From: Dehalococcoidia bacterium
GTDB lineage: Bacteria > Chloroflexota > Dehalococcoidia > Lucifugimonadales > UBA1127
Direction: 5' to 3'
Assembly (NCBI GenBank): GCA_965116355.1
Contig: OZ220679.1
Span: 1,204,752 to 1,268,751, forward strand
Length of the DNA: 64,000 nt
In this document: one piece after another, positions 6,492 through 57,032 of the stretch
How the letters are laid out: every line of letters begins with the position of its first letter
How positions within the stretch are numbered: the stretch's first letter is position 1
Notes under the pieces: generated by a model
Databases searched by the model: none
What the model was told of the DNA's origin: nothing
Seen by the model: the letters and a program-made list of their open reading frames with translations, nothing else
Made by a program: the position numbers and the translations under genes

Positions 6492-7634
6492 ATGAGGTTT
6501 GCGGCGTTCACGACCGTTGCGGCGTCGGCGGGCGAGGCGGCCAGCGCGTCCGAGATGGTGGACAACCTCCGCCAGCAGGCCGTGCTGGCCGAGGAGCTCG
6601 GCTTCGAGACCATCTGGCTGGGCGAGCACCACTTCGGCCCCTACGGCATCGGCGACCTGCCGAACCCCATCCTCCTCGGCGCGGACCTGGCGGCGAGGAC
6701 ATCGCGAATCCGCATCGGGCAGATGGCGAACATCGCGCCGTGGTGGCACCCGATCCGGCTCGCGGAGGACATCGCCATCCTCGACAACCTGACGGGCGGG
6801 CGCGTGGAGGCGGGCTTCGGCAGGGGCATCTGGCCGTACGAGGGGCCCCAGTTCCACCCCAACGCCAACCCCCGGCTGGAGCGGGAGAGCCGGGAGCTCT
6901 TCAGCGAGACGGTCGAGATCGTCCGCAAGATCTGGACCGAGGAATTCTTCTCGCACAGCGGCGAGAACTACACGTTCCCCGTCGACGGCACCGTTTTCTC
7001 GCACCCGCGGTTCGCGCCGGACCCGGCGTGGCAGGACGGCGAGCGGGTCACGCGGCTGCGGGTGACGCCGAAGCCCTTGCAGAAGCCGCACCCGCCCCTG
7101 TGGATGACGGTCTCCACGGACCGCTCCGTGACGACGGCGGCCGAGCTGGGCCTGAAGGCCTGCTACTGGCAACCCCCGCCGCGCCGGGTCAGGCAGCGCA
7201 TGGAGCTGTACGCGCAGGTCCGCTCCGAGCGCGAGGGGCGGCCCTTCCGCGTCGGCGAGGACCAGGCCGTGATGCGCTCGACGTACGTGGCGTCGTCGAT
7301 GGAGGAGGCGCGTCGGGACGCCGAGGCGGGCATCATGTCGGCGTTCATCTTCAACGACCCCTTCCGCGGGATGCAGGTCTTCTCCAACCCGGACGAGGAG
7401 ATGGACCCGGCCGGGAAGCTGGACTGGGACTTCCTGGAGCCGCGCACGTTGCTGGTCGGCTCGCCGGAGCACGTGACGGAGAAGGTGCACGAGCTGCAGG
7501 AGGTGTGCGGCCTCGAATATCTGCTGGTGGAGTTCGCGCACATGGGGATGCCGGTGCAGAAGACGCTCAAGAACCTCGAGGCCTTTGCAACGAAGGTGAT
7601 GCCGAGATTCGCGGAGAACGGCAACCAGGGGTGA
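6492..7634 (+). CDS. Luciferase-like (LLM class) flavin-dependent monooxygenase
   Basis: AEELGFETIWLGEHHF, HPIRLAEDIAILDNLTGGR, PKPLQKPHPP. Confidence 0.9.
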   Translation: MRFAAFTTVAASAGEAASASEMVDNLRQQAVLAEELGFETIWLGEHHFGPYGIGDLPNPILLGADLAARTSRIRIGQMANIAPWWHPIRLAEDIAILDNLTGGRVEAGFGRGIWPYEGPQFHPNANPRLERESRELFSETVEIVRKIWTEEFFSHSGENYTFPVDGTVFSHPRFAPDPAWQDGERVTRLRVTPKPLQKPHPPLWMTVSTDRSVTTAAELGLKACYWQPPPRRVRQRMELYAQVRSEREGRPFRVGEDQAVMRSTYVASSMEEARRDAEAGIMSAFIFNDPFRGMQVFSNPDEEMDPAGKLDWDFLEPRTLLVGSPEHVTEKVHELQEVCGLEYLLVEFAHMGMPVQKTLKNLEAFATKVMPRFAENGNQG

Positions 7635-7670
7635 GGCGGGCCGCGCCGGTGTGCTCGATAGACGCCAGGC

Positions 7671-9038
7671 CTAGCCGGGGCGAGCCGCGAGCATCTCCGC
7701 GACCTGCATCGCGGCGCCCTCGCCGCTCGAGAGGGCGCCGTTGACCGCCGGCACGCGCATGTAGTCGCCCGCCAGGACCAGGTTGTCGATGCTCCCCGCG
7801 ACCTGCTGCGGCACGTCCGCCATCGCCGCAAGCATCCCCGGCTCTCCCATGCAGAGCGCCTCGTCCCAGCGGTACACGCGGTAGAAGAGGCCCTCGTCGT
7901 CGCCGGGGAGGGCTGACCCCGGAGGCGCCTTGCGGCGGGCGGCGCCCAGCAGCTCGCGCTTGATCTCCTCGTCGGAGAGTGGGATGAGCTCCTTCGCGCG
8001 GTCGCGGCCGATGAGCAAGTCGAGGATGCTCTTGCCCGGCGGCGCGCAGGCGGGCAGGAAGGCCGTCCGGTTCAGCAGCAGCGGGGTGTCGTCGTCCTCC
8101 GGGAAGAGCGCGCCGTGCCAGCCGGGAGGCAGCGGGGAGCGGTCGAGGCCAATCACGACCCGGCAGCCCGTCGAGTAGCTGACGGTGCCGAGCGCACGGC
8201 GTGTCTCCTCCGGCAGCTCCGGGATGATGCCGGTGACCCTCGTGCCGGGGACGGCGCAGATGACGGCGTCGGCCTCGATGGTCTCGCCGTCGACGACCAC
8301 CCCGGTCGCTGCGCCGCCTTCGACGACGATGCGCCGGACCGGCGTCGATACGCGCGTCACTTCGGAACAGTATGCGGCGAGGGCTTCGCTGAGGGAGCCG
8401 ATGCCCCGCTCTGGCATGTAGACCCTGCCGGAGTGCAGCATGGTCTCGCCGATGTAGGCCCGCATCAGCGCTTGCCCGGCGGGCATCGGGTCGCCCAGGA
8501 TCATGTCGAGGGGGCCCCGGAGCGTCACCTGCAGGGTCTCGGGAACGCGGAGGCGCTCCAGGTACGCGCCGAAGGACTCGTCGTCATCGATCTCGGCTAG
8601 GGGGCTGTCGCCGGCGAAGCTCATGTACGGCGCCTGTCCATGGATCTCGCGCATCACCCTCATGCCGGAACGCATGCCCGCGGGCGATAGGAAGCCCATG
8701 GTGATGGCCGTGCGAAAGTGGCGTATGAAGTTCCAGAAGGACTGGTCCGGCGTCGTGGTGACCCAGCGCCCCTTGCGGTAGTGGCCGAACTTCATCATCG
8801 AGGGCACCAGCGGCAGCCCGAGCTCCCCGCAGAGGCGGAAGGCGGTGTCGTAGGTGGAGGTGAAGACGAACGCCCCCATGTCGAGCGAGAACCCGTCCAC
8901 CTTCTCGCCCCTGCCGCGGCCGCCCGCGCGGTCCTCGGCCTCCAGCAGGAGGGGCGTGATGCCCCGCTTCATCAGCGTGTAGGCGGCGCACAGCCCGGCA
9001 AACCCCCCACCAACTATGACAACCCGCTTGTCGCTCAT
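7671..9038 (-). CDS. FAD-dependent oxidoreductase (protoporphyrinogen oxidase/amine oxidase family)
   Basis: VVIVGGGFAGL...EAEDRAGGR and C-terminal LAGDY...NGALSSG. Confidence 0.8.
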   Translation of the reverse strand: MSDKRVVIVGGGFAGLCAAYTLMKRGITPLLLEAEDRAGGRGRGEKVDGFSLDMGAFVFTSTYDTAFRLCGELGLPLVPSMMKFGHYRKGRWVTTTPDQSFWNFIRHFRTAITMGFLSPAGMRSGMRVMREIHGQAPYMSFAGDSPLAEIDDDESFGAYLERLRVPETLQVTLRGPLDMILGDPMPAGQALMRAYIGETMLHSGRVYMPERGIGSLSEALAAYCSEVTRVSTPVRRIVVEGGAATGVVVDGETIEADAVICAVPGTRVTGIIPELPEETRRALGTVSYSTGCRVVIGLDRSPLPPGWHGALFPEDDDTPLLLNRTAFLPACAPPGKSILDLLIGRDRAKELIPLSDEEIKRELLGAARRKAPPGSALPGDDEGLFYRVYRWDEALCMGEPGMLAAMADVPQQVAGSIDNLVLAGDYMRVPAVNGALSSGEGAAMQVAEMLAARPG

Positions 9039-9106
9039 GTGCCGCGGCTCCCTCTATGGCGCTCCGCGCCCATTGTGCCGTCGAGTTGCGCAGGCGGGCA
9101 AGCGGT

Positions 9107-9190
9107 TGGTGGGGATGCCGGGACTCGAACCCGGACGCCAAAGGCACATGGTCCTAAGCCATGCTCGTCTGCCAATTCCGACACATCCCC
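9107..9190 (-). tRNA. tRNA-Leu(TAG)
   Basis: GGGGATG/CATCCCC acceptor stem, anticodon arm CATGG-CTTAGGA-CCATG, long variable arm, GGTTCGAGTCC T-loop, encoded CCA. Confidence 0.95.
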
Positions 9191-9229
9191 AGCGGCGGTG
9201 GGCGCTCGTGACGGCAATGGTTGGGGGAG

Positions 9230-9303
9230 TGACCCGCCTCGGACTCGAACCGAGAACCCACTGATTAAGAGTCAGTTGCTCTGCCAAATTGAGCTAGCGG
9301 GCC
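9230..9303 (-). tRNA. tRNA-Lys(CTT)
   Basis: GGCCCGC/GCGGGTC acceptor stem, ACTGA-CTCTTAA-TCAGT anticodon arm, GGTTCGAGTCC; CCA not encoded. Confidence 0.95.
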
Positions 9304-17261: not shown

Positions 17262-17513
17262 CTATTTACCGTAGCGGTCAATGAGTTCCTGAAGGCCCTT
17301 GCGGCCTATTTGCGTCTGCTTGACGCCGAGAATCACGCCCAGAATCTTATCCGCCAGATCTGTTGACTTATCCGGGATGATGGTAGTCCGGCGGCCGGAT
17401 TCTCCGGGAAACACCTTCCACATGAGGAATCCATGGTTCGCCCGTCTCTCTATTTGCCAGCCATCCTTGAGCAATAGCTCTGCCAAGTCCTTTCCGGAAA
17501 TCGCGATTGGCAT
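17262..17513 (-). CDS. HicA-family toxin
   Basis: ISGKDLAELLLKDGW...ANHG, ILGVIL; lower GC. Confidence 0.7.
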   Translation of the reverse strand: MPIAISGKDLAELLLKDGWQIERRANHGFLMWKVFPGESGRRTTIIPDKSTDLADKILGVILGVKQTQIGRKGLQELIDRYGK

Positions 17514-17516
17514 GAG

Positions 17517-17837
17517 CTAGAGCGGGGCTCCTATTGTCACGTAGGTATTTGCGGCATATTCCTGACCAAGGTCTGCGACGGGAAGGGGTTTGATGCCGCG
17601 CTCGCTCAAGAACTCTTCAATGCAGCCCATCTTGTCGACACCATTGACGTGCAGGTCGACGAGTTCGTAGAGCTCTTTGCGGACGTCCTCAAGGGTATCC
17701 GCACAGGTGGCTGTGCCCAATTCAAGACACTCGCCAGTCCACTGATTCCCCTCTTGATCGAACTCGGCGGTGAGGATCAGAACCTCTGTCACGACCCTCT
17801 CTGAATAGTGGAGCATGGCAAAGCTCTCACGAAGCAT
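17517..17837 (-). CDS. HicB-like antitoxin
   Basis: WTGECLELGTATCADTLEDVRKEL, RNase H-like HicB pattern; GGAGGT RBS. Confidence 0.7.
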   Translation of the reverse strand: MLRESFAMLHYSERVVTEVLILTAEFDQEGNQWTGECLELGTATCADTLEDVRKELYELVDLHVNGVDKMGCIEEFLSERGIKPLPVADLGQEYAANTYVTIGAPL

Positions 17838-17923: not shown

Positions 17924-19927
17924 CTACGCCCCCGCGCCCGCCTTGTGCTGCTCGACGACCTTCTGCGTGAGGTTGCCCGGCAGCGGCTCGTAGTGGTCCA
18001 CCTCCATGGTGAAGGTGGCGCGGCCCTGCGTCAGCGAGCGCAGATCGAGGGCGTAGCGCTGCACCTCCGGTAGGGGCACGTTGGCCTCCACCACCGTCCG
18101 CCCGTCGTCCTGCGGGATCATGCCGAGGATCCGCCCGCGCTTGCTGTTCAGGTCGCCGATGAGCTCGCCGGTGTAGGCGTCCGGTGTGTTGACCCGCAGC
18201 AGCATGATGGGCTCCAGCAGTACCGGCGACCCCTCCGCGAAGGCCTTCTTCATCGCGAAGTAGCCGCAGGTCTCGAAGTCCATGCTGGCCGAGTCGACGG
18301 GGTGGTAGCTGCCGTCGTAGAGCACCGCCTTGGTGTCGACGACGGGGAAGCCCGCCACGATGCCTTCGGCCCACGCCCGGCGCACGCCCTTCTCGACGGC
18401 GGGAATGAACTCCTTGGGCACGGAACCGCCAACCACCTCGGTGGCGAACTCGCCCTCGGGCGAGCCGTCGGTGGGCTCCACGCGCAGCAGGATGTGGGCG
18501 AAGTGGCCGTGGCCGCCCGACTGCTGCTTGTGCCGGTGCTCCACCTTCGTAGTCCCGCCGATGGTCTCGCGGTAGGGGACCTTGGGCGTCTGCAGCAGCA
18601 GGTTGACGCCGAACTTGCGCTGCGCCCGCTGCACCATCACGTCCAGGTGCGCGTCGCCCATGCCGGACAGGAGCGATTCGCTCGTGCTCTGGTCGCGGAC
18701 GAAGTGCAGGCTCGGGTCCTCCTCGGCGAGACGGGCCAGAGCGGAGCCCATCTTGTCGGTGTCGCCCTTGGTCTTGGGGTAGACGGCCATGGTGTAGATG
18801 GGGGCGGGGAACTCAATGCCGACGATCTGCGCGGCCGCGTCCCTCGTCGAGAGCGTGTCGCCCGTCGTGGTCTCCGCCAGGCGGCCCACGGCGCCGATCT
18901 CGCCGGCGACGAGCGACGCCACCTGCTCCTGGTTCTTGCCCATGGGGACGAAGAGCTGGCCCAGCCGCTCGGAGCGCTCCTTGGCGGCGTTGTAGACCTC
19001 CGTGTTGCTGTTGAGCGTGCCGCTGTAGACCTTCAGGTACGTCAGCTTGCCCACGTACGGGTCCGCCGACGTCTTGAACGCCAGCGCCGCCAGCGGGCCG
19101 TCGGCCTCGACGGGGTTCTGCGACTCCAGCGGCGACGGCGCAAGCGCGACGATGGCGTCCAGCGCCTCGGCCGCGCCGACGTTCTGCGTAGCCGAGGCTG
19201 CCAGCACGGGCACGGCCGAGCCGTTGACGACGGCGCGGCGCAGGGGCTCCAGCATCTCCTCGTCCGTGAGCGTCCCCTCCTCCAGCCACTTGGTCGCCAG
19301 GTCGTCGTCCGTTTCCGCGATGGACTCGATGAGGGCCTCGCGGGCCTGCTCGTAGGCGTCTTGGGCCTCGGCGGGGACCTCGGCGGGCGCGGGGAGGATG
19401 TTGACGACGCTCTTGAAGTCGTGGTCCTGCCCCACCGGCGTCTGCAGCGCAAAGCACTCGCGCCCCAGCGTGTTGCGGAGCTCCTCGACCGTCGCCATGA
19501 AGTCCGTGTTCTCCCGGTCCAGCTTGTTGACGACGATGATGCACGGAAGGCCCTGGCGGCGCAGCGCGCTCCACATCTGCTCGGTGCCCACCTCGACGCC
19601 GGCGCCCGCCGCCACGACGAGCACGGCGGCGTCGGCCACGCGCATCGAGGAGAGGGCGTCGCCGATGAAATCGAAGTAGCCCGGGCTGTCCAGCAGGGTG
19701 ACCTTGTGGCCGTTCCAGGAGCAGGGGAGGATGGACAGCTGGGTGCTGCTGGTGCGCTTGACGGCCTCCGGCTCGTAGTCGCCGGTGGTGGTGCCGTCCT
19801 CCGTCTTGCCCATGCGGGTGATGGAGCCGGAGGTGAAGAGCATCGCCTCGGCCAGGGATGTCTTGCCGGCGCCGCTGTGCGACAGCATGACGACGTTGCG
19901 CAGCTTGTCAGTGCTGAAAGGGCCCAT
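17924..19927 (-). CDS. fusA: Elongation factor G (EF-G2-like paralogue)
   Basis: HSGAGKTS, DSPG, NKLD, KQQSGGHGHFA, DGSYHPVDS. Confidence 0.9.
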   Translation of the reverse strand: MGPFSTDKLRNVVMLSHSGAGKTSLAEAMLFTSGSITRMGKTEDGTTTGDYEPEAVKRTSSTQLSILPCSWNGHKVTLLDSPGYFDFIGDALSSMRVADAAVLVVAAGAGVEVGTEQMWSALRRQGLPCIIVVNKLDRENTDFMATVEELRNTLGRECFALQTPVGQDHDFKSVVNILPAPAEVPAEAQDAYEQAREALIESIAETDDDLATKWLEEGTLTDEEMLEPLRRAVVNGSAVPVLAASATQNVGAAEALDAIVALAPSPLESQNPVEADGPLAALAFKTSADPYVGKLTYLKVYSGTLNSNTEVYNAAKERSERLGQLFVPMGKNQEQVASLVAGEIGAVGRLAETTTGDTLSTRDAAAQIVGIEFPAPIYTMAVYPKTKGDTDKMGSALARLAEEDPSLHFVRDQSTSESLLSGMGDAHLDVMVQRAQRKFGVNLLLQTPKVPYRETIGGTTKVEHRHKQQSGGHGHFAHILLRVEPTDGSPEGEFATEVVGGSVPKEFIPAVEKGVRRAWAEGIVAGFPVVDTKAVLYDGSYHPVDSASMDFETCGYFAMKKAFAEGSPVLLEPIMLLRVNTPDAYTGELIGDLNSKRGRILGMIPQDDGRTVVEANVPLPEVQRYALDLRSLTQGRATFTMEVDHYEPLPGNLTQKVVEQHKAGAGA

Positions 19928-20097
19928 GGGTACATGCCTCCTGAGACGGGAATTGCTTGATTCTAGCTAACGCCCATACCTCGCGCAACTCCCCGCACTC
20001 GGCGCGGCGAGCGGGCATGACACGCGCGCCTTGCGCGCAGCCGCCGCCTCCCGCGACGCTGGCCCTGCTCGAAATATCATTCCAGTAAGGAGGAAGC

Positions 20098-20574
20098 ATG
20101 GATCCGGAAGAAGAGACACAGAGCGAGGCAACAGGCGTGACCGAGGACGTCGAGACGGAGGAGCCGGAGAGCATCGAAACGACCACGGCGGTTGACAGCG
20201 AGGGGCCGCCGCTCGAAGGGCGCGTGGCGGCGCTGGAGCTTCGGGCCGAGGAGGCGCAGGCCGAGGCCGCCGCCCGCGGCGAGGAGGCGTCGGCGTTGCG
20301 CGCGGAGTTGGCGGAGGTCCTTCAGCGCTACCGTGGCCTGCTGCTGGCCAGGGACCCGGACGTGCCGGAAGAACTCGTGCGCGGCGAGACCGTCGCGGAG
20401 CTCGAGGCCTCCTTCGAGCGGGCCGCGGGGCTCGTGGACCGGCTGCGCCGCCGTGCGGTGGAGCAATCGGCCCGGGAGCGAGTGCCTGCCGGGGCCCCTG
20501 CAAGGCGTGCGCCTGACTCGGCGGGACTTACGCCACAGCAGAAGATCCTGCTGGGTCTCCAGGGGCCGAATTGA
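20098..20574 (+). CDS. Coiled-coil protein resembling a phage capsid scaffolding protein
   Basis: Acidic N-terminus, long coiled coil, VPEELVRGET, C-terminal VPAGAPAR...LTPQQKILLGL helix; strong AGGAGG RBS. Confidence 0.6.
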   Translation: MDPEEETQSEATGVTEDVETEEPESIETTTAVDSEGPPLEGRVAALELRAEEAQAEAAARGEEASALRAELAEVLQRYRGLLLARDPDVPEELVRGETVAELEASFERAAGLVDRLRRRAVEQSARERVPAGAPARRAPDSAGLTPQQKILLGLQGPN

Positions 20575-20632
20575 GCGCGGGAGATTCAACGGCGGCGCCG
20601 TATACTCTCGGCCAATAGGCGCCTATAGCACA

Positions 20633-20667
20633 CAGAAAGCCCCGGTTGTCAGTGCCGGGGCTTTCTG
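20633..20667. terminator. Intrinsic terminator-like hairpin
   Basis: Perfect 13-bp stem CAGAAAGCCCCGG / CCGGGGCTTTCTG, 9-nt loop. Confidence 0.7.
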
Positions 20668-20884
20668 GCATTCTTGTGTACAGGTATTCACGCACAAGAC
20701 ACCGCCACAATTGAGGCGGTGAAAAATTCGACTAGAAACCGTTCTCTCTCATTCAGAAAAGTATCGACTTTGCTCGCTTTATGGTGTATCCTTCGGCCTC
20801 AAATATATTCCAACTGTTGCATCCGGCAAACGAAATCTAGGCGGTGATTGGCGCGGGGATCAGAGGGGAATAGGAGGACGTAAA

Positions 20885-21229
20885 ATGCTCTTTGTCAACT
20901 TGATGACGCTCAAGCCGCATCTGACACGGCAGCAAATCGACCAGGCATCGCAGCGACGGGCCCGATGGCGCGTGCCCAACGGCTTGAGCCTTGTCGCAGA
21001 GTACTGGGTCCAGGGATCGCCTCAGGTGATCAGCATCGTCCAGGCCGAAAACGTCGGGCCCGTCCTGGCTGCCAACTACCCATGGACCGACGTCTTTGAC
21101 ATTGAGACGCACCCGGCCATGTCCGTGGAGGACGGCCTGCGGGCGCTGCAGGTCGCGGGGATCATCAAGCGCAGGGGCCGCCGGCCCAAGGCGCTGATCG
21201 AGGCCATGCGCGCCGCCTCCGAGACATAG
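20885..21229 (+). CDS. DUF3303/GYD-like small protein with basic C-terminal KRRGRRPK
   Basis: AGGAGG RBS; VAEYW...IVQAEN...W.DVFDIETHPA; candidate promoter TCGACT-17-TATCCT at 20764-20792. Confidence 0.65.
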   Translation: MLFVNLMTLKPHLTRQQIDQASQRRARWRVPNGLSLVAEYWVQGSPQVISIVQAENVGPVLAANYPWTDVFDIETHPAMSVEDGLRALQVAGIIKRRGRRPKALIEAMRAASET

Positions 21230-21301
21230 TCGCCGCGGAAAACTTCTCATACAGGCATCGAGGAGGCTCGCGGCAGACTGGCCCGAGCCTCCGAGACGCG
21301 C

Positions 21302-22633
21302 CTACCCCATCCCCGGCTGGCCCGGGTACCGTTCTCCCTCTTCTCGCACCCGCGAGAGCTCGCCCTCGGGGTCCGCGATGCCCACGTTGGCCATCGCCCG
21401 GCGGCGGCTCTGCAGACCCGCGTTGACCAGCCTCTCCTCCTGCTGCACCAGCCGGTCGCGGTCCTGCGGCAGCGCCGTGCCCCACGTCGTCCGAAGCCGC
21501 ACCGGCCAGCACTCCTCGCCCGTCTGCTGCTGGTGGATGCGCAGCGCGAGCTCGGCGCGATGCCGGTAGACGCTGTTGCGCTGCAGCCGCTTGCGGGCCA
21601 CGCGCTGCACCATCGGGTACAGCTCCATCTCGAGCGCGACGCCGGACAGGTTGCGGCCGCTGTCGCCGAAGGCCGTGCGCGGCGTCTCCGACAGGTCGTG
21701 CAGCACGCGGTAGAGGAGCTCGATGTACTCGGTGTGCAGCCGGACGCCGCCTCCCTGCAGCAGGTCCAGCAGGTAGGCGCGGGCGCGCTCCGGCACCTCC
21801 CACACCGCGCCCGGCTGCACGGCGATGTCCTGTGCCTCCTCCACGCCCTCCAGCACCGCGATCGGGTTTCCCGACAGCTCCAGGATCGTCGAGAGCTGCG
21901 AGAAGGCGCGGTTGATCTCCCGCTGCGGCTCCATCAGGGCGGTGATGTCCGCGCTGCCCCAGAACTGCTTGGGCTCCCGGAGGTTGGGGAAGACGATGAA
22001 GGGGATGAAGCCGTAGGGGTTGGGCCGCTCCTCCATCAGGTCGTTGCCCACCCACAGGCTGAAGCTCTCGGCCGTCCACGCTTCCGCCACGACGGCCTCG
22101 GCGCCCGAGGGCGTCACGCCGTAGAGCAGCCCGGCCTCCTCGGCCGTGAGCCAGTAGCGGCTCGCGACCCGCCACACCCGCGAGACGTCGTCGCCCACCC
22201 ACCACGCGAAGATGCCCTGCACGTCCGGCGAGGTGATGCGCACGCCCGGCCCTGAGCCGCCGGCCGCGGCCGGCTCCCACGTGACCTTGTAGCACCCGTC
22301 GCCGAGAACGGTGGCGTCGAGCTCCGTCTCGAAGTCCAGCTCCTGCAGGTCGTTGGCCTCGGCGACGGCGAGCAGGACGCGGCGGGCCGTCGCGGCGCGG
22401 GCCTCGGCTTCCGGGGAGCCGTCCGCCGGCTCAACGGCGACGTGCAGGCCGGCGAGGAGTGCGGCCGTCACCTTGTGCGCGAAGGTGCGGACGTAGTTGA
22501 AGGTGAGCCGCCGCTCCCTGCGCCGGGGCGCGCCCGGCCAGTGGGCGCCGCCGTAGAAGGCGAGGTTGTCGCGGTACGCCCGCATGCGGGCCGCGTCGAG
22601 CTGTTCCAGTTGCTGCGGCAAGGAAAGCGCCAT
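21302..22633 (-). CDS. Phage portal protein (SPP1 gp6-like)
   Basis: RLTFNY, DATVLGDG, PNPYGFIPFIVFPN...WGSADI, NLSGVAL, LQSRRRAM...GIADPEGEL; GGAGGT RBS. Confidence 0.82.
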   Translation of the reverse strand: MALSLPQQLEQLDAARMRAYRDNLAFYGGAHWPGAPRRRERRLTFNYVRTFAHKVTAALLAGLHVAVEPADGSPEAEARAATARRVLLAVAEANDLQELDFETELDATVLGDGCYKVTWEPAAAGGSGPGVRITSPDVQGIFAWWVGDDVSRVWRVASRYWLTAEEAGLLYGVTPSGAEAVVAEAWTAESFSLWVGNDLMEERPNPYGFIPFIVFPNLREPKQFWGSADITALMEPQREINRAFSQLSTILELSGNPIAVLEGVEEAQDIAVQPGAVWEVPERARAYLLDLLQGGGVRLHTEYIELLYRVLHDLSETPRTAFGDSGRNLSGVALEMELYPMVQRVARKRLQRNSVYRHRAELALRIHQQQTGEECWPVRLRTTWGTALPQDRDRLVQQEERLVNAGLQSRRRAMANVGIADPEGELSRVREEGERYPGQPGMG

Positions 22634-22907
22634 CGCTGTCGACCTCCGTAAGTCAGGTATGGTCTCGGATGACGGCCAGTGTCCGCGGTGCATTGCGGCT
22701 CGCACAATGAGGGCGTGTCAGGGCTGTGGCTGAGGTGGCCGCTCGGTGGCCGCTCGTCTCTCCGGAAACATGCGGTTTGCACAAGCCGAAAGTGTGCCCC
22801 ATAATGGTTTCGCCATGTGTACCCACTGAGCATTCGTGCGCACCGCAGGCCCCGGTTCCACCGCGGCATTCCATCAGCCCATGATGCGCCCCACCAACAG
22901 AAGGAGT

Positions 22908-23543
22908 ATGCCTGTGTCCAAGAATGGATTCACGGTATGGATGACGGGGCTTCCCAGCTCCGGCAAGAGCACCCTGGCGGGCCGGCTGGCCGCCGAGCTG
23001 CAGGGCCGCGGCCTGCCCGTGGTGAACCTGGACGGCGACGAGGTCCGCATGCGGCTCTCCAAGGGCCTGGGTTTCTCCAAGGAGGACCGCGACGAGAACA
23101 TCCGCCGCATCTCCTACGTGGCGCGCGTAGCGTCCGAAATGGGCGGCGTCGCGATTACGAGCGCGATCTCGCCCTACCGGGAGATCCGCGACGAGGCGCG
23201 GGCGGAGATCGCGCAGTTCGTGGAGGTCTTCGTCTCGTGTCCGGTGGAGGTCTGTATCCAGCGCGACGTGAAGGGGCTGTACAAGAAGGCCCTCGCGGGT
23301 GAGATCAAGGGCTTCACCGGCATCGACGACCCGTACGAGGAGCCGCTCAACCCCGAGCTCGTCGTGCACACCGACAAGGAGTCCGAGCAGGAGAGCATCG
23401 GCAACATCCTCGGCACGCTGGACCGCCTCGGACTGCTCCCTCAGAACGAAGCCAACAGCCGCGCCGCCGGCGCCTCCGCCGTCTCGGACGACGAGCGGGA
23501 ACGGGCGCTGACAAAGCTCCGCGGACTCGGATATTTGGAGTAG
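22908..23543 (+). CDS. cysC: Adenylyl-sulfate kinase
   Basis: WMTGLPSSGKST, LDGDEVR, RDVKGLY, FTGIDDPYEEP. Confidence 0.95.
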   Translation: MPVSKNGFTVWMTGLPSSGKSTLAGRLAAELQGRGLPVVNLDGDEVRMRLSKGLGFSKEDRDENIRRISYVARVASEMGGVAITSAISPYREIRDEARAEIAQFVEVFVSCPVEVCIQRDVKGLYKKALAGEIKGFTGIDDPYEEPLNPELVVHTDKESEQESIGNILGTLDRLGLLPQNEANSRAAGASAVSDDERERALTKLRGLGYLE

Positions 23544-23546
23544 GAC

Positions 23547-24692
23547 ATGCTGCCCGCACCGCATGGAGGAAAGCTCGTCCGCCGCGTCCTGACCGGAGAC
23601 GCGCAGGCGAAGGCCATCGAAGAAGCTGCGTCAATGGAGACGGTCGCCGTCTCGGCGGACGTGGTCTCGGACATCGTCAACATCGCGACCGGCGCGTACA
23701 GCCCCCTGGAGGGCTTCCTCGACAGCCGCGACCTTGAGAGCGTGCTGTCGTCCGACCACCTGACCGGCGGCGCGCCGTGGACCATCCCCATCGTGCTGGA
23801 CGTCGAGCCTGAGCAGGCGAAGTCGCTGCCGGACCGCGTCGCCCTCGCCGCGCCGAACGGCGAGACGGTGGCGACCATGCACGTCACAGACCGCTACGGG
23901 TACGACAAGGAGCGCTACGCCCAGCACGTCTTCGGCACGACCGACGCGGACCACCCGGGCGTCGCGGGCCTGCTGGAGCGGCACGACACGCTGCTGGGCG
24001 GCGTCCTCGACCTCATCGCGGAACCGGCGGCGGCCTTCCCGTCGTATACGCTCGACCCCATCGAGACGCGGGTGCTGTTCGAGGCGAAGGGCTGGCGGAC
24101 GGTCGTCGGCTTCCAGACGCGCAACGTGCCGCACCTGGGCCACGAGTACGTGCAGAAGTCCGCGCTCTCCTTCGTCGACGGCCTGTTCATCAACCCGGTC
24201 ATCGGCCGCAAGAAGTCCGGCGATTTCACGGACGACGCCATCCTGACGACGTACGAGGCCCTCATGGCCAACTACTACCGGCCGGAGCGCGCCGTCATGG
24301 CCGTGCTGCGGACGGAGATGCGGTACGCGGGGCCCAAGGAGGCTATCTTCCACGCCATCGTGCGGAAGAACTTCGGGTGCACGCACTTCATCGTCGGGCG
24401 CGACCACGCGGGCGTCGGGAGCTACTACACGCCCTACGCGGCGCAGGACATCTTCGAGGACTTCCAGGAGCTGGGCATCACGCCGATGTTCTTCACGTCG
24501 TTCTTCATGTGCCACAAGTGCGGCAGCGTGGTGAATGAGAAGACATGCCCGCACGGCCCCGAGCACCAGGAACAGTTCAGCGGGACGCTGCTGCGGAACC
24601 TCATGACCAGCGGCACGGTGCCGGAGGGCGGCCTCATCCGCCCGGAGGTCGCCCGCGTGCTCATCGACCATCCGGACCCGCTGGTGGCGTAG
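23547..24692 (+). CDS. sat: Sulfate adenylyltransferase
   Basis: FQTRNVPHLGHE, MRYAGPKEA, HFIVGRDHAGVG. Confidence 0.95.
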   Translation: MLPAPHGGKLVRRVLTGDAQAKAIEEAASMETVAVSADVVSDIVNIATGAYSPLEGFLDSRDLESVLSSDHLTGGAPWTIPIVLDVEPEQAKSLPDRVALAAPNGETVATMHVTDRYGYDKERYAQHVFGTTDADHPGVAGLLERHDTLLGGVLDLIAEPAAAFPSYTLDPIETRVLFEAKGWRTVVGFQTRNVPHLGHEYVQKSALSFVDGLFINPVIGRKKSGDFTDDAILTTYEALMANYYRPERAVMAVLRTEMRYAGPKEAIFHAIVRKNFGCTHFIVGRDHAGVGSYYTPYAAQDIFEDFQELGITPMFFTSFFMCHKCGSVVNEKTCPHGPEHQEQFSGTLLRNLMTSGTVPEGGLIRPEVARVLIDHPDPLVA

Positions 24693-24701
24693 GGGGGCGG
24701 G

Positions 24702-24911
24702 CTAGGCGGTGGCTTCCACAAGCTCGTAGGACTGGGGCTCCGGGACGGGCAGTCCCTCTTCCCGCAGCGCCTCAATGTAGAGTTCGATGGCCTCCAAGAT
24801 CAGGGCATATACCTCATCCCGTGTGTCTCCTACCGCTACGCAACCCGGCAAATCAAGGACCTGAGCGCCGTAGCTGGTGGGGCCCTTTTCGATGATCACG
24901 GAGTAACCCAT
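24702..24911 (-). CDS. HicB antitoxin
   Basis: YSVIIEKGPTSYGAQVLDLPGCVAVGDT. Confidence 0.85.
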   Translation of the reverse strand: MGYSVIIEKGPTSYGAQVLDLPGCVAVGDTRDEVYALILEAIELYIEALREEGLPVPEPQSYELVEATA

Positions 24912-24922
24912 TGAACCTCTCC

Positions 24923-25111
24923 CTACTCCAGACCTGCCTGCTTGAGAATCGCGCTCCAAATCCCCGTCGGGACGTCCTTGCCGGGGCGCCCTGCTATGAC
25001 GACTATCCCCGTCTTGGTCGAGTGTTTGAAGACGCGGTGACTGCCTCTGGTTCGTGCGAGCCTCCAACCGTCCTGCTCAACCAAGCGTATCGCATCTCGC
25101 ACCTTCGGCAT
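24923..25111 (-). CDS. HicA toxin
   Basis: KVRDAIRLVEQDGW...RGSHRVFKH...SAILKQAGL. Confidence 0.85.
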   Translation of the reverse strand: MPKVRDAIRLVEQDGWRLARTRGSHRVFKHSTKTGIVVIAGRPGKDVPTGIWSAILKQAGLE

Positions 25112-54451: not shown

Positions 54452-55636
54452 GTGATAAACACATCCCCATCTCTCGGACGAAGCCTTTGGAAATCGGCCG
54501 ACGGACAGTCCGCGCTGTACCACGCGGACTCAATCGAGCTCATGGCCACCATCCCGCCAGAATCAGTGGATTGCATCTGGACTGATCCCCCCTACCTCCT
54601 CTCCAACGACGGAGTGACATGCGTTGCAGGAAAGCGCGTCAGCGTCAACAAGGGGGAGTGGGACCGCAGTGGCGGCGTGGATAGCGACTATACGGCTAAC
54701 CTCATATGGCTCGGCGCGTGTCACCGCATTCTCAAGCCTGCCGGCACCATCTGGATAACGGGAACGCTACACATCTATCTCAGCGTCGGCATGGCCTTGC
54801 AGCAGCTTGGCTTTCGAATACTCAACGACATCATTTGGGAGAAGCCCAATCCGCCGCCGAACCTCGGCGCGCGCTGTTTCACTCACTCGACAGAGGTCGT
54901 CTTGTGGGCCACGAAGGCACCAAAGGGCAGCAAGCACCGTCACACCTTCAACTATGAGGAAATGCGCGCCGAAAACGGCGGAAAGCAGATGAAATCAGTC
55001 TGGCGCTTTCTACCCGCCGGGCAGGGCGAGAAGCGTTTCGGCAAGCACCCGACCCAAAAGCCCGTCGCCCTTATCGACCGCTGCATTCGCGCCAGCACTA
55101 ATCCAGGCGACATTGTGCTCGACCCCTTCGCGGGAACAGCAGCAACCGGGGTTGCCGCCTTGAAGAATGGGCGGAACTTCATCGGTATCGAGCAAGACAT
55201 CAGATTTGCGGAAATCGGCATGAGGCGGCTTATGGACATTGATGCAGGCAGCACACCTGTTCCTTCTCATGGACAAAGCGCTACCCCCCCCCCCCCGAAC
55301 AATTGTACCAAAACCGTCTTCTGGAAAAATCCAAGCGCTACGGCAAGAAGTCGTAAGAGCGGCCTGCTATGTCCACAGACACTCCATCACCACCAGGGCA
55401 CTCCGACAGCTGGCAAGCCATATTCCAGCACTGCGATATCGAGAATCATGCCTTCGATCGGGAGCCATTCCGGCTTTCTGCGAGGCAAATTAATGAAGCT
55501 TGCCAACGTTTTCCCCGCCCAGGTCAGAAGGAAGTCCGACTCCTCTGCAAGCAAGACACGCGAGAATCCCGTCCCAGCCTCTTCCAACGCCACGGACTGT
55601 TTATCCTTCCCGTTCGCAACGGCCAGTACGTGTTAG
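54452..55636 (+). CDS. DpnA (M2.DpnII)-like beta-class N6-adenine DNA methyltransferase; natural stop probably 55356, read past because of the C13 tract
   Basis: TDPPYLLSNDG, SVNKGEWD, PNL..R.FTHSTE, GKQMK.VW, KHPTQKP, LDPFAG. Confidence 0.9.
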   Translation: MINTSPSLGRSLWKSADGQSALYHADSIELMATIPPESVDCIWTDPPYLLSNDGVTCVAGKRVSVNKGEWDRSGGVDSDYTANLIWLGACHRILKPAGTIWITGTLHIYLSVGMALQQLGFRILNDIIWEKPNPPPNLGARCFTHSTEVVLWATKAPKGSKHRHTFNYEEMRAENGGKQMKSVWRFLPAGQGEKRFGKHPTQKPVALIDRCIRASTNPGDIVLDPFAGTAATGVAALKNGRNFIGIEQDIRFAEIGMRRLMDIDAGSTPVPSHGQSATPPPPNNCTKTVFWKNPSATARSRKSGLLCPQTLHHHQGTPTAGKPYSSTAISRIMPSIGSHSGFLRGKLMKLANVFPAQVRRKSDSSASKTRENPVPASSNATDCLSFPFATASTC

Positions 55637-56163
55637 TGAAGGGCGAGGGCTACTTGGACATTCCTCCAATCGATACCCCTGTGCAGGAATACTCCAGCAA
55701 CTTCCCTTTCATCCTGGAAACCTCCCGTGTCGGCGATTCGGAGATGCAGCATTTGGATCGCGCGTTTGCGTTAAGCCTCATACGGCATTTTACGGAAGAC
55801 CCGTCCCTGGTGATGACCATACGCGGCAGGAAGTACACCCCAAAGTTTGAATTCGTCACCGGGGAGTTCTTGCTCGAAGCCGAAGGGGTGCAGACAGAGG
55901 TCGATGCAGGATATGAGGGAGAAAGGCAAGTCGTCCTGATAGAAGCCAAATCTCCCAAGGCCAACAACACGATTATTCGGCAACTCTACTATCCCTTCCG
56001 GCAATGGAGTGAATGGACCGACAAATCGGTCACCACAGTGTTCTTCCAACACACCGATAACGATGAATTCCACCTGTGGCAGTTCGGCTTCGCAGACAAG
56101 TTGGACTACAACAGCGTGTACCTCGTGAAATCCGGCCGGTTCCGAATTGCCCAGCACCCTTAG
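55369..56163 (+). CDS. Putative type II restriction endonuclease (PD-(D/E)xK)
   Basis: QTEVDAGYEG...VLIEAK, IRQLYYPFR; directly follows the MTase; lower GC. Confidence 0.7.
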   Translation: MSTDTPSPPGHSDSWQAIFQHCDIENHAFDREPFRLSARQINEACQRFPRPGQKEVRLLCKQDTRESRPSLFQRHGLFILPVRNGQYVLVKGEGYLDIPPIDTPVQEYSSNFPFILETSRVGDSEMQHLDRAFALSLIRHFTEDPSLVMTIRGRKYTPKFEFVTGEFLLEAEGVQTEVDAGYEGERQVVLIEAKSPKANNTIIRQLYYPFRQWSEWTDKSVTTVFFQHTDNDEFHLWQFGFADKLDYNSVYLVKSGRFRIAQHP

Positions 56164-56246
56164 GATCTCCGCATGGTATACTCGCGCCTACTGTAGTTTT
56201 GGCTGATATTGCTACCATCCACACCCACACCGCGCGAGAGTTGCCA

Positions 56247-57032
56247 ATGGACCTGCAAATGGACCCAAGCGTTGCCGCAGGCTACACGAGCCTCAGTCAA
56301 GTGGCCCGCAAGGTCACCGGAGACTGGGCAGCCCGCAACCTCTTTTGCCCTGCGTGTGAGTGGAACAGCCTCAACCAAACTCCCTCTGACTCCACTAGGC
56401 TGGACTTCCTCTGTCCTGAGTGCAGCGCATCGTTTCGGTTGAGAGGCAAGAGCGGGGCGTTTGGCCGCGTTGTCCCGAACTCCGCATACCAGCCTAAAGT
56501 CGACGCTATTCTGAGAGGTGAAAGCCCACACTACGCCTTTCTGCGCTACAGCCGCACCAACTGGACAGTGAGCGATCTTTTCTTGGTGCCCGGCTTCTTC
56601 TTCACCCCCGCCCTCATCCAGGAGCGACGCCCGCTCAAGCCAACCGCAAAGCGGGCAGGCTGGGTAGGATCAAACATCCTGCTTGGCGCGCTTCCCGCCG
56701 AGGCGCGTGTCCCTGTCGTAGTTTCCGGCTTGGTTCGTGACATCACCGAGGTCCGCGACGATTGGGCTCGCTTCCGCTTCCTGCAGACAGACGAGCGGGC
56801 ACACGGCGGATGGGGAGCTGCTGTGCTCTCTTGCGTCCGCGATATGGTGCGAATCTCCAGACAGCAAGAGTTCACGCTCCAGGACTATTACACGCTCTAC
56901 ACGGACGTGCTCTCAGCCCAATTCCCGGACAACCACCACGTCCAGGACAAGATCCGGCAGCAACTGCAAATGCTGCGTGACGCGGGAATCCTGACCTTCC
57001 TCGGCAATGGCCGTTATGAGGTCATCGACTAG
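56247..57032 (+). CDS. DpnI-family protein (G-m6A-TC binding) with degenerate catalytic site
   Basis: Y.S.SQ.AR, CPAC...CPEC zinc site, PTAKRAGWVGSNI, winged helix NHHVQDKIRQQLQMLRD.G...F.GNGRY. Confidence 0.88.
   Translation: MDLQMDPSVAAGYTSLSQVARKVTGDWAARNLFCPACEWNSLNQTPSDSTRLDFLCPECSASFRLRGKSGAFGRVVPNSAYQPKVDAILRGESPHYAFLRYSRTNWTVSDLFLVPGFFFTPALIQERRPLKPTAKRAGWVGSNILLGALPAEARVPVVVSGLVRDITEVRDDWARFRFLQTDERAHGGWGAAVLSCVRDMVRISRQQEFTLQDYYTLYTDVLSAQFPDNHHVQDKIRQQLQMLRDAGILTFLGNGRYEVID

Follow-up and report, generated by a model that had tools for sequence, protein, structure and literature searches.

At positions 20,098 to 22,633 of a 64-kb stretch of Dehalococcoidia chromosome lie a gene for a phage-type portal protein and a gene for a small acidic coiled-coil protein, both set among cellular genes. 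The whole stretch, referred to here as the window, is C1:1204752-1268751 of the source genome (G000), a single contig of 2.59 Mb. The original prediction, made from the letters of the window, took the two genes to be parts of a dispersed phage-derived particle, either a gene transfer agent (GTA) or a compartment. The features at the locus are as follows.

21302..22633, minus strand: portal, SPP1 gp6-type, 443 amino acids (aa); PF05133 4.7e-13, PHROG 64 1.3e-22
20098..20574, plus strand: 158-aa acidic coiled-coil protein, candidate capsid scaffold from its position between portal and capsid in contiguous modules
20885..21229, plus strand: DUF3303 gene, between the 158-aa gene and the portal; PF11746 2e-11
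17924-19927, minus strand: EF-G, neighbour
22836-24692, plus strand: cysC-sat, neighbour

The portal open reading frame (ORF; 21302-22705, minus strand) is uninterrupted, and its 443-aa form begins at the ATG at 22633, which is preceded by GGAGG and is the start kept within the genus. The protein matches the Pfam family SPP1_portal (PF05133) over residues 183-435 with 49.3 bits, the cut-off being 25.5, and the PHROG 64 portal profile over residues 85-434; it is thus the intact SPP1 gp6-like portal that had been claimed. One copy is present in G000. Its third-position GC content (GC3) is 0.94, like that of the adjoining genes, which agrees with the host-like composition described earlier. Both genes do lie between EF-G and cysC-sat, with the DUF3303 gene, which the original prediction did not mention, between the two. 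Of 61 window ORFs (6+46+9) scanned with Pfam, none matched a family of terminases, capsids, tail proteins, lysis proteins or integrases, and the description of the portal as an orphan therefore holds for the window. It does not hold for the genome, where further parts lie at two other loci.

The 158-aa protein of G000 has no Pfam or PHROG match. An antisense ORF (20077-20589, minus strand) has the same codon boundaries and the same GC1/GC3 pattern; the plus frame is regarded as coding because in eight same-genus loci its identity is the higher (55-88%, the antisense frame having 37-73%) and because it has homologues in 22 further loci. The best-conserved part of the family is the C-terminal segment PAGAP...LTPQQKI (ERVPAGAP.R...L[ST]P.EKI across homologues), the same segment that had first suggested a scaffold. 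In the AlphaFold2 (AF2) model, disordered acidic residues 1-34 are followed by helices at 39-85 and 99-127, which form a long hairpin, and by a short conserved C-terminal helix at 146-154. When this model was compared with BFVD by Foldseek the best E was 0.015 and no match was significant; at least 13 of the top 50 were named scaffolding proteins. One homologue (L077:5116-5637) weakly matches PHROG 1793, head scaffolding, at 3.4e-4. A complex prediction of the capsid protein with residues 36-158 scored 0.16 against a mark of 0.32 and counts neither way.

Within the genus of G000 the 158-aa gene is inverted relative to the portal. The convergent arrangement reported for the pair is therefore real in G000, but it is derived. 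Among 24 species-representative loci from metagenome-assembled genomes of Dehalococcoidia or Chloroflexota, 10 have the 158-aa gene downstream of the portal on the same strand, as do 8 of 12 IMG/VR loci; mostly it is directly 3' of the portal, with about 1-2.3 kb of inserted ORFs between the two in L071, L072 and L076. Portal, 158-aa gene and capsid follow one another on one strand in L070-L072, L075-L077, L081-L083, L085 and L086. Exceptions are L074, where the portal comes after the capsid, and L084, which has no 158-aa match. Since colinear modules place it between portal and capsid, the gene occupies the classical scaffold position, and this position, together with the predicted architecture and the weak PHROG match of the homologue, suggests that the 158-aa protein is probably a capsid scaffolding protein.

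The remaining genes of the module

A Pfam capsid search of G000 gave a single match, 87 kb from the portal, in a locus with four genes of interest.

C1:1134204-1138684 (locus L014), one strand: capsid, adaptor, hub and 72-aa gene locus, from Pfam, PHROG and Foldseek
L014:9795-10685: major capsid protein, 296 aa, HK97-fold; PHROG 212 1.8e-66, Pfam Phage_capsid 8e-12
L014:8492-9127: SU10-type (head-tail) adaptor, 211 aa; PF24175 2.7e-10
L014:6507-8489: 660-aa propeller-hub fusion; Foldseek fold match
L014:6205-6423: conserved 72-aa gene after the hub

The 660-aa model, with a predicted local distance difference test (pLDDT) value of 88.9, combines an N-terminal beta-propeller with a C-terminal half like baseplate or tail hubs. 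Its Foldseek matches in PDB, at E 3.5e-16 to 1e-11, are Mu gp44, T4 gp27, VgrG, the pyocin R2 hub and the 80alpha baseplate. The capsid profile found no solved structure by sequence.

A third locus, 369 kb away, was found by phmmer with the ORFs of Streptomyces phage BRock, which is among the phages with the closest portals. The match (C1:1596731-1597747, 2e-14) is a putative large terminase that PHROG terminases match weakly (2e-4), and it stands in the following block.

C1:1596099-1598531: terminase block, comprising a 113-aa gene, a 90-aa gene, the large terminase and a 101-aa helix-turn-helix (HTH) gene
Within the block: small-terminase-like protein, 113 aa; homologue against PHROG 1889 7.5e-6
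Within the block: 90-aa protein with hydrophobic C-terminus
Within the block: Cys-rich HTH protein, 101 aa; weak sigma-70 region 4 and Mor-type matches

Neither the 113-aa and 90-aa proteins nor the 72-aa and 660-aa proteins of G000 have a PHROG or Pfam match. The search of the rest of the genome, which had been proposed as the way to find the missing parts, thus yielded a capsid, an adaptor and a large terminase at two other loci.

The arrangement of these genes in relatives helped to clarify how the three loci belong together. Ten genes, in the order 113-aa small-terminase-like, 90-aa, large terminase, HTH, portal, 158-aa, capsid, adaptor, hub and 72-aa, are colinear in IMG/VR contigs (L069-L077) and in complete genomes of other Dehalococcoidia families (L083, L081-L085, and L086 of G150, where the module fills 9 kb at L086:6306-15340). 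This order is taken as ancestral, and the ten genes as a phage-derived module for head assembly, DNA packaging and a stub tail. The hub directly follows the adaptor; genes for a tail tube, a sheath, a tape measure or a prohead protease are absent. Various stages of separation were seen. The terminase block adjoins the portal in 14 of the 24 species-representative loci, and in L056-L062, L067 and L068 about 2.8 kb of opposite-strand cellular genes stands between the terminase and the HTH-portal pair. The distance from portal to capsid is 0.4-0.9 kb, with only the scaffold gene between, in genomes such as G069, G121, G204, G279 and G051; other groups lie at 1.5-12 kb and at 37-205 kb. One genus holds the distance at 42-113 kb in 16 genomes, and in the genus of G000 it is 75-110 kb. 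The order EF-G, 158-aa, DUF3303, portal, cysC, sat is repeated in seven same-genus loci. Insertions of host genes, along with rearrangements, have split the module, which in G000 consists of three loci up to 369 kb apart, in whose scanned flanks no integrase or replication family was found.

Several further observations concern these loci. Directly upstream of the G000 capsid gene, on the opposite strand, is a low-GC gene of the AbiJ/DUF7014 type, abortive-infection-like (L014:10942-11853, C1:1138941-1139852). Between capsid and adaptor, also on the opposite strand, a 139-aa ORF (L014:9206-9625, plus strand) has hydrophobic stretches that look membrane-like by eye; it has no family match, is kept at 31-68% in the four other capsid loci fetched from family f1 (G004, G016, G019, G020) and is absent where the capsid and adaptor genes directly adjoin (G026). 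The G000 hub has, about 6-9 kb away, a gene of the DUF5131 family (phage Gp37/Gp68) with a partner gene (L014:482-1261 and C1:1127652-1128581), the former preceded by GAATATACGTTC, as the terminase operon is. In IMG/VR contig L072 a similar pair (7369-9133) separates the portal from the scaffold gene; the portal of this contig is truncated, beside a large serine recombinase gene (L072:4936-7295). In G028 an insertion of about 1.6 kb interrupts the hub gene (L035:12641-16540). At least eight further G000 ORFs resemble the 113-aa small-terminase-like protein of the IMG/VR contigs, with starts at C1: 153039, 330126, 388351, 1064627, 1127180, 1581095, 1811760 and 2205577. The copy at 1811760 has an N-terminal GNQNARKHG-type motif and a CCCTGACAC-TTGCCC-TACCCT promoter block.

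Descent, selection and regulation

The class was sampled with 301 Dehalococcoidia genomes at least 90% complete, including one unpublished genome (G246) on which alone no result depends. At E <= 1e-20 a portal was matched in 192 of these genomes and 112 of 171 genera, mostly in one copy each, and a capsid was present in 177. The two follow a like pattern by family (e.g. 20/21, 20/21 vs 19/21, 10/10, 0/21, 0/11). In a sample of 41 relatives from the order, portal and capsid were each found in 19 genomes and terminase in 15, portal and capsid matching the identical 8 of 27 genera. Across the phylum 29 of 251 genomes had a match at 1e-30, only 12 of them outside the class, at 40-45% identity. Identity across the class is 50-68% for the portal and 58-79% for the capsid.

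Divergence of the portal keeps pace with that of the host. Within the genus it is 85-95% identical, and the identities of PheT and portal to G000, given in pairs, are 96/95, 91/89, 90/89, 90/90, 85/85, 84/87, 83/87 and 83/87, with 61/68, 62/67, 58/67, 54/63, 51/61, 53/61 and 55/60 for the remaining genomes. The host flanks are syntenic in genus g1, and in genus g99 a contiguous module has the same flanks in four species. In a quick IQ-TREE analysis of 36 portals, from which L045 and L036 had been dropped by a coverage and stop filter, the genus was recovered with support of 100 and grouped with its own family and order, and six IMG/VR portals fell on separate deeper branches.

Ratios of nonsynonymous to synonymous substitution (dN/dS) were estimated within the genus by the Nei-Gojobori method (NG86), which is rough at GC3 >0.9. 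For the portal the ratio was 0.11-0.155 at dS 0.24-0.64, comparable to the housekeeping neighbours EF-G (0.06-0.13), sat (0.08-0.15) and cysC (0.17-0.27), for which dS was similar. The 158-aa gene gave 0.17-0.32 and the two halves of the terminase 0.21 and 0.11. The module is fixed in most Dehalococcoidia, is vertically inherited and is kept by purifying selection. The points on which the original prediction had made its case depend, namely a mostly single-copy portal that is conserved and syntenic, clusters by host taxonomy rather than among IMG/VR contigs and is under constraint, have all come out in its favour. Its placing of the DNA in Dehalococcoidia was right as well.

Some features upstream of the module genes suggest how they may be controlled. 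Within the genus, the upstream regions of portal, 158-aa gene and capsid align in register on the pattern CCCTG[AC]CAC-N7-TTG[TC][GC]C-N18 followed by a -10-like hexamer. In the window it takes the following forms.

22702..22720, minus strand: promoter-like block before the portal, TGACAC-N7-TTGTGC, 18 nt, then ACACTG; 7/7 same-genus upstream regions aligned
20018..20036, plus strand: promoter-like block before the 158-aa gene, TGACAC-N7-TTGCGC, then ACGCTG; 7/8 same-genus regions

The eighth same-genus region of the 158-aa gene (L049) deviates in the first hexamer. No exact 8-mer is common to three or more of the five upstream regions. A scan of G000 for the shared block gave 12 matches, against 3-7 in simulated genomes, and since several of these precede ordinary genes a promoter specific to the module is not established.

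A second element is the palindrome GAAC-N4-GTTC, which, with at most one mismatch, precedes the capsid in 6 of 8 detached loci, 52-88 nt before its start, and in 0 of 12 contiguous ones, the background being 0.048 per 150 nt. It resembles the Gram-positive LexA (Cheo) box; a literature search for the LexA box of Dehalococcoides gave nothing usable. The palindrome at the G000 terminase operon is GAATATATGTTC, and CGAACATCTGTTTG lies upstream of lexA. Because the palindrome of the capsid and terminase operons resembles the operator before lexA, the capsid operon, and in G000 the terminase operon as well, may be under SOS control.

A proposed GTA-like system and its alternatives

It is suggested here, with a probability of about 0.55, that the portal and the 158-aa gene are members of a vertically inherited, fragmented and domesticated phage particle system that is GTA-like. 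For GTAs we follow the definition in PMC11841831, PMC10883770 and PMC9953437. The phage-derived structural and packaging genes described above are chromosomal, have no integration or replication functions in the flanks scanned, and have been inherited vertically over the long term under purifying selection.

The closest comparison is with the RcGTA type of the Alphaproteobacteria (Rhodobacter capsulatus, Caulobacter), whose head, packaging and tail genes likewise are phage-derived, fixed in the chromosome and passed on vertically through a large clade, under purifying selection and at partly dispersed loci that have no integrase or replication genes. LexA is involved in RcGTA. The Dehalococcoidia module is the smaller, with about ten genes in 9 kb whereas RcGTA has about 17 in 15 kb, and it differs further in its lack of genes for a tail tube, a tape measure and a prohead protease. 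No sequence relation between the two has been shown, and the function of the Dehalococcoidia module is a putative one. Among cultured phages the closest capsids are about 40% identical (Xp15, Rowa, PaMx11) and the closest portals about 24% (BRock, BCD7). The portal is like those of the SPP1 gp6 type and the adaptor like those of the SU10 type in passing PF05133 and PF24175, respectively. By sequence the G000 portal is only weakly related to solved portals, the best match being 1.5e-05 (9gb5 gp45).

The dispersed gene set that the original prediction foresaw is thus present, and it may serve particle production and DNA transfer in Dehalococcoidia. If so, proteins from the three loci would assemble in trans; a capsid nucleated by scaffold and portal would be packed with DNA by the terminase and then sealed by a very short tail consisting of adaptor, hub and 72-aa protein. 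Because the loci cannot travel together and have no integrase or replication gene, such a particle would carry host DNA, as a GTA does. It is possible, though we advance this more tentatively, that a minimal GTA of about 9 kb and ten genes with a very short tail was ancestral to the class and is still functional while scattered, sponge-associated lineages included. Its shared promoter type and LexA-type operator could then allow DNA damage to trigger the packaging and export of host DNA, and it would represent an independent domestication on the scale of RcGTA.

A number of observations weigh against a GTA-like system. There is no observation of a particle, of DNA packaged in one or of transfer. 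Of endolysin, holin or fibre genes none was recognised, the whole proteome not having been scanned. The Pfam terminase families PF03237, PF17289, PF03354 and PF04466 have no match in G000, and the identity of the putative large terminase rests on one phage match and weak PHROG matches. The G000 terminase is in two frames; the break falls in a GC-rich linker, between L017:10661 and 10697, and either the packaging function may suffer in G000 or the assembly may have an indel error at this point. The gene is also unusually divergent, being about 71% identical to same-genus copies, as against 89% between G004 and G012, and the terminase of G150 also appears split. The module is patchy within its own order (19/41 genomes) and broken copies occur: the G018 portal has two stops, G011 has fragments only, and the capsids of G038 and G039 are fragments. 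A relative at L077 is near a tyrosine integrase and an HNH nuclease, so repeated acquisition is possible. In the portal tree 13 of 33 inner branches are unresolved; the dN/dS values are subject to the roughness already mentioned, and that of the capsid, 0.37, is like that of its neighbours, at 0.36-0.39. Contigs of one metatranscriptome library (X8) cover 19909-20162, 20297-20459, 20824-21143 and 21870-22024 at depth 2.4-5.7, and pieces of EF-G in the same library are similarly low, at 2.5-3.0. This coverage is not counted as expression, since it consists of contigs and DNA carry-over is possible.

An alternative that we consider unlikely, although it is the best of the rivals, is that the module has been exapted for a use other than transfer, whether as a capsid compartment, as a decoy or defence against incoming phages or as a particle that delivers protein, host-DNA packaging no longer being selected. 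The lineage of G000 and G003 could be read this way, as its terminase is divergent and interrupted while portal and capsid are as conserved as PheT; terminase is also found in fewer genomes of the order than the portal (15 against 19 of 41), and the AbiJ-like gene and toxin-antitoxin pairs adjoin the loci. In most lineages, however, the terminase is intact, at 484-637 aa, and adjoins the portal, and its dN/dS is 0.11-0.21. Portal, adaptor and hub, moreover, have no known role in the absence of DNA passage. An encapsulin nanocompartment, which is a shell without portal or terminase, was considered and rejected, as the capsid gene is accompanied across the class by those for portal, terminase, adaptor and hub.

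Doubtful to a greater degree is a helper-dependent or mobile element, such as a small phage or a satellite of the type of the capsid-forming phage-inducible chromosomal islands (cf-PICIs), that has become grounded here. The cf-PICIs have a small set of terminase, portal, scaffold, capsid and adaptor without long tail genes, and the Dehalococcoidia module resembles them in this set and in having no tail tube, sheath or tape measure. Contiguous relatives do occur on IMG/VR contigs, and the integrase and HNH neighbours of L077, as well as a DNA methylase gene near the relative at L080, would suit a mobile origin. Unlike a cf-PICI, the module has its own gp27-like hub and small distal protein, and in G000 its genes are spread over three loci, as much as 369 kb from one another, and form no single contiguous island; no integrase, regulatory or replication module flanks them. 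From species to species the position and flanks of the module also stay the same, and it has diverged as much as host genes have. That the genes are inert remnants of an ancient prophage, drifting to loss, would account for the patchiness in the order, the several broken copies and the G000 frameshift, but it is very improbable given open frames at 50-68% (portal) and 58-79% (capsid) identity across the class, dN/dS well below 1 and the retention of all ten genes together in distant lineages.

To our knowledge few GTAs have been demonstrated by experiment, and none but that of the Alphaproteobacteria is known to be fixed throughout a large clade. No paper describing the present gene set was found in a search on GTAs in Chloroflexi or Dehalococcoidia that did not extend to subscription journals and supplements. 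The module is a second phage-derived particle gene set kept at the scale of a class, with all stages from compact to scattered represented. Dehalococcoidia have few cultured members, and if the particles are real they would offer a possible means by which genes are exchanged among bacteria not yet in culture, and the stages of the module a natural series for the dismantling of a virus into host genes.

Neighbouring genes

The DUF3303 gene is probably cellular and outside the module. It adjoins the portal in genera g1 and g5 only and is absent from contiguous modules; at 94-100% identity within the genus and dN/dS 0.00-0.05 it is under the tightest constraint in the neighbourhood. The only tRNAs of the window lie at 9107-9303.

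Two HicA/HicB-like toxin-antitoxin pairs (17262-17837 and 24702-25111) flank the block of EF-G, portal and cysC-sat. The second passes Pfam (HicA 3.7e-19, HicB-like 5e-11); in the first HicA is weak (1.5e-3), its partner has no match, and position and orientation vary within the genus. Further along the window, at 54452-57032, is a low-GC island (GC 0.58 against about 0.69) with genes for an N6/N4 DNA methylase, a DUF6996/DUF6997 protein and a DpnI-like restriction enzyme, which is probably an acquired restriction-modification cassette. Sequence near-identical to the source was found in several DNA runs labelled as sponge metagenomes.

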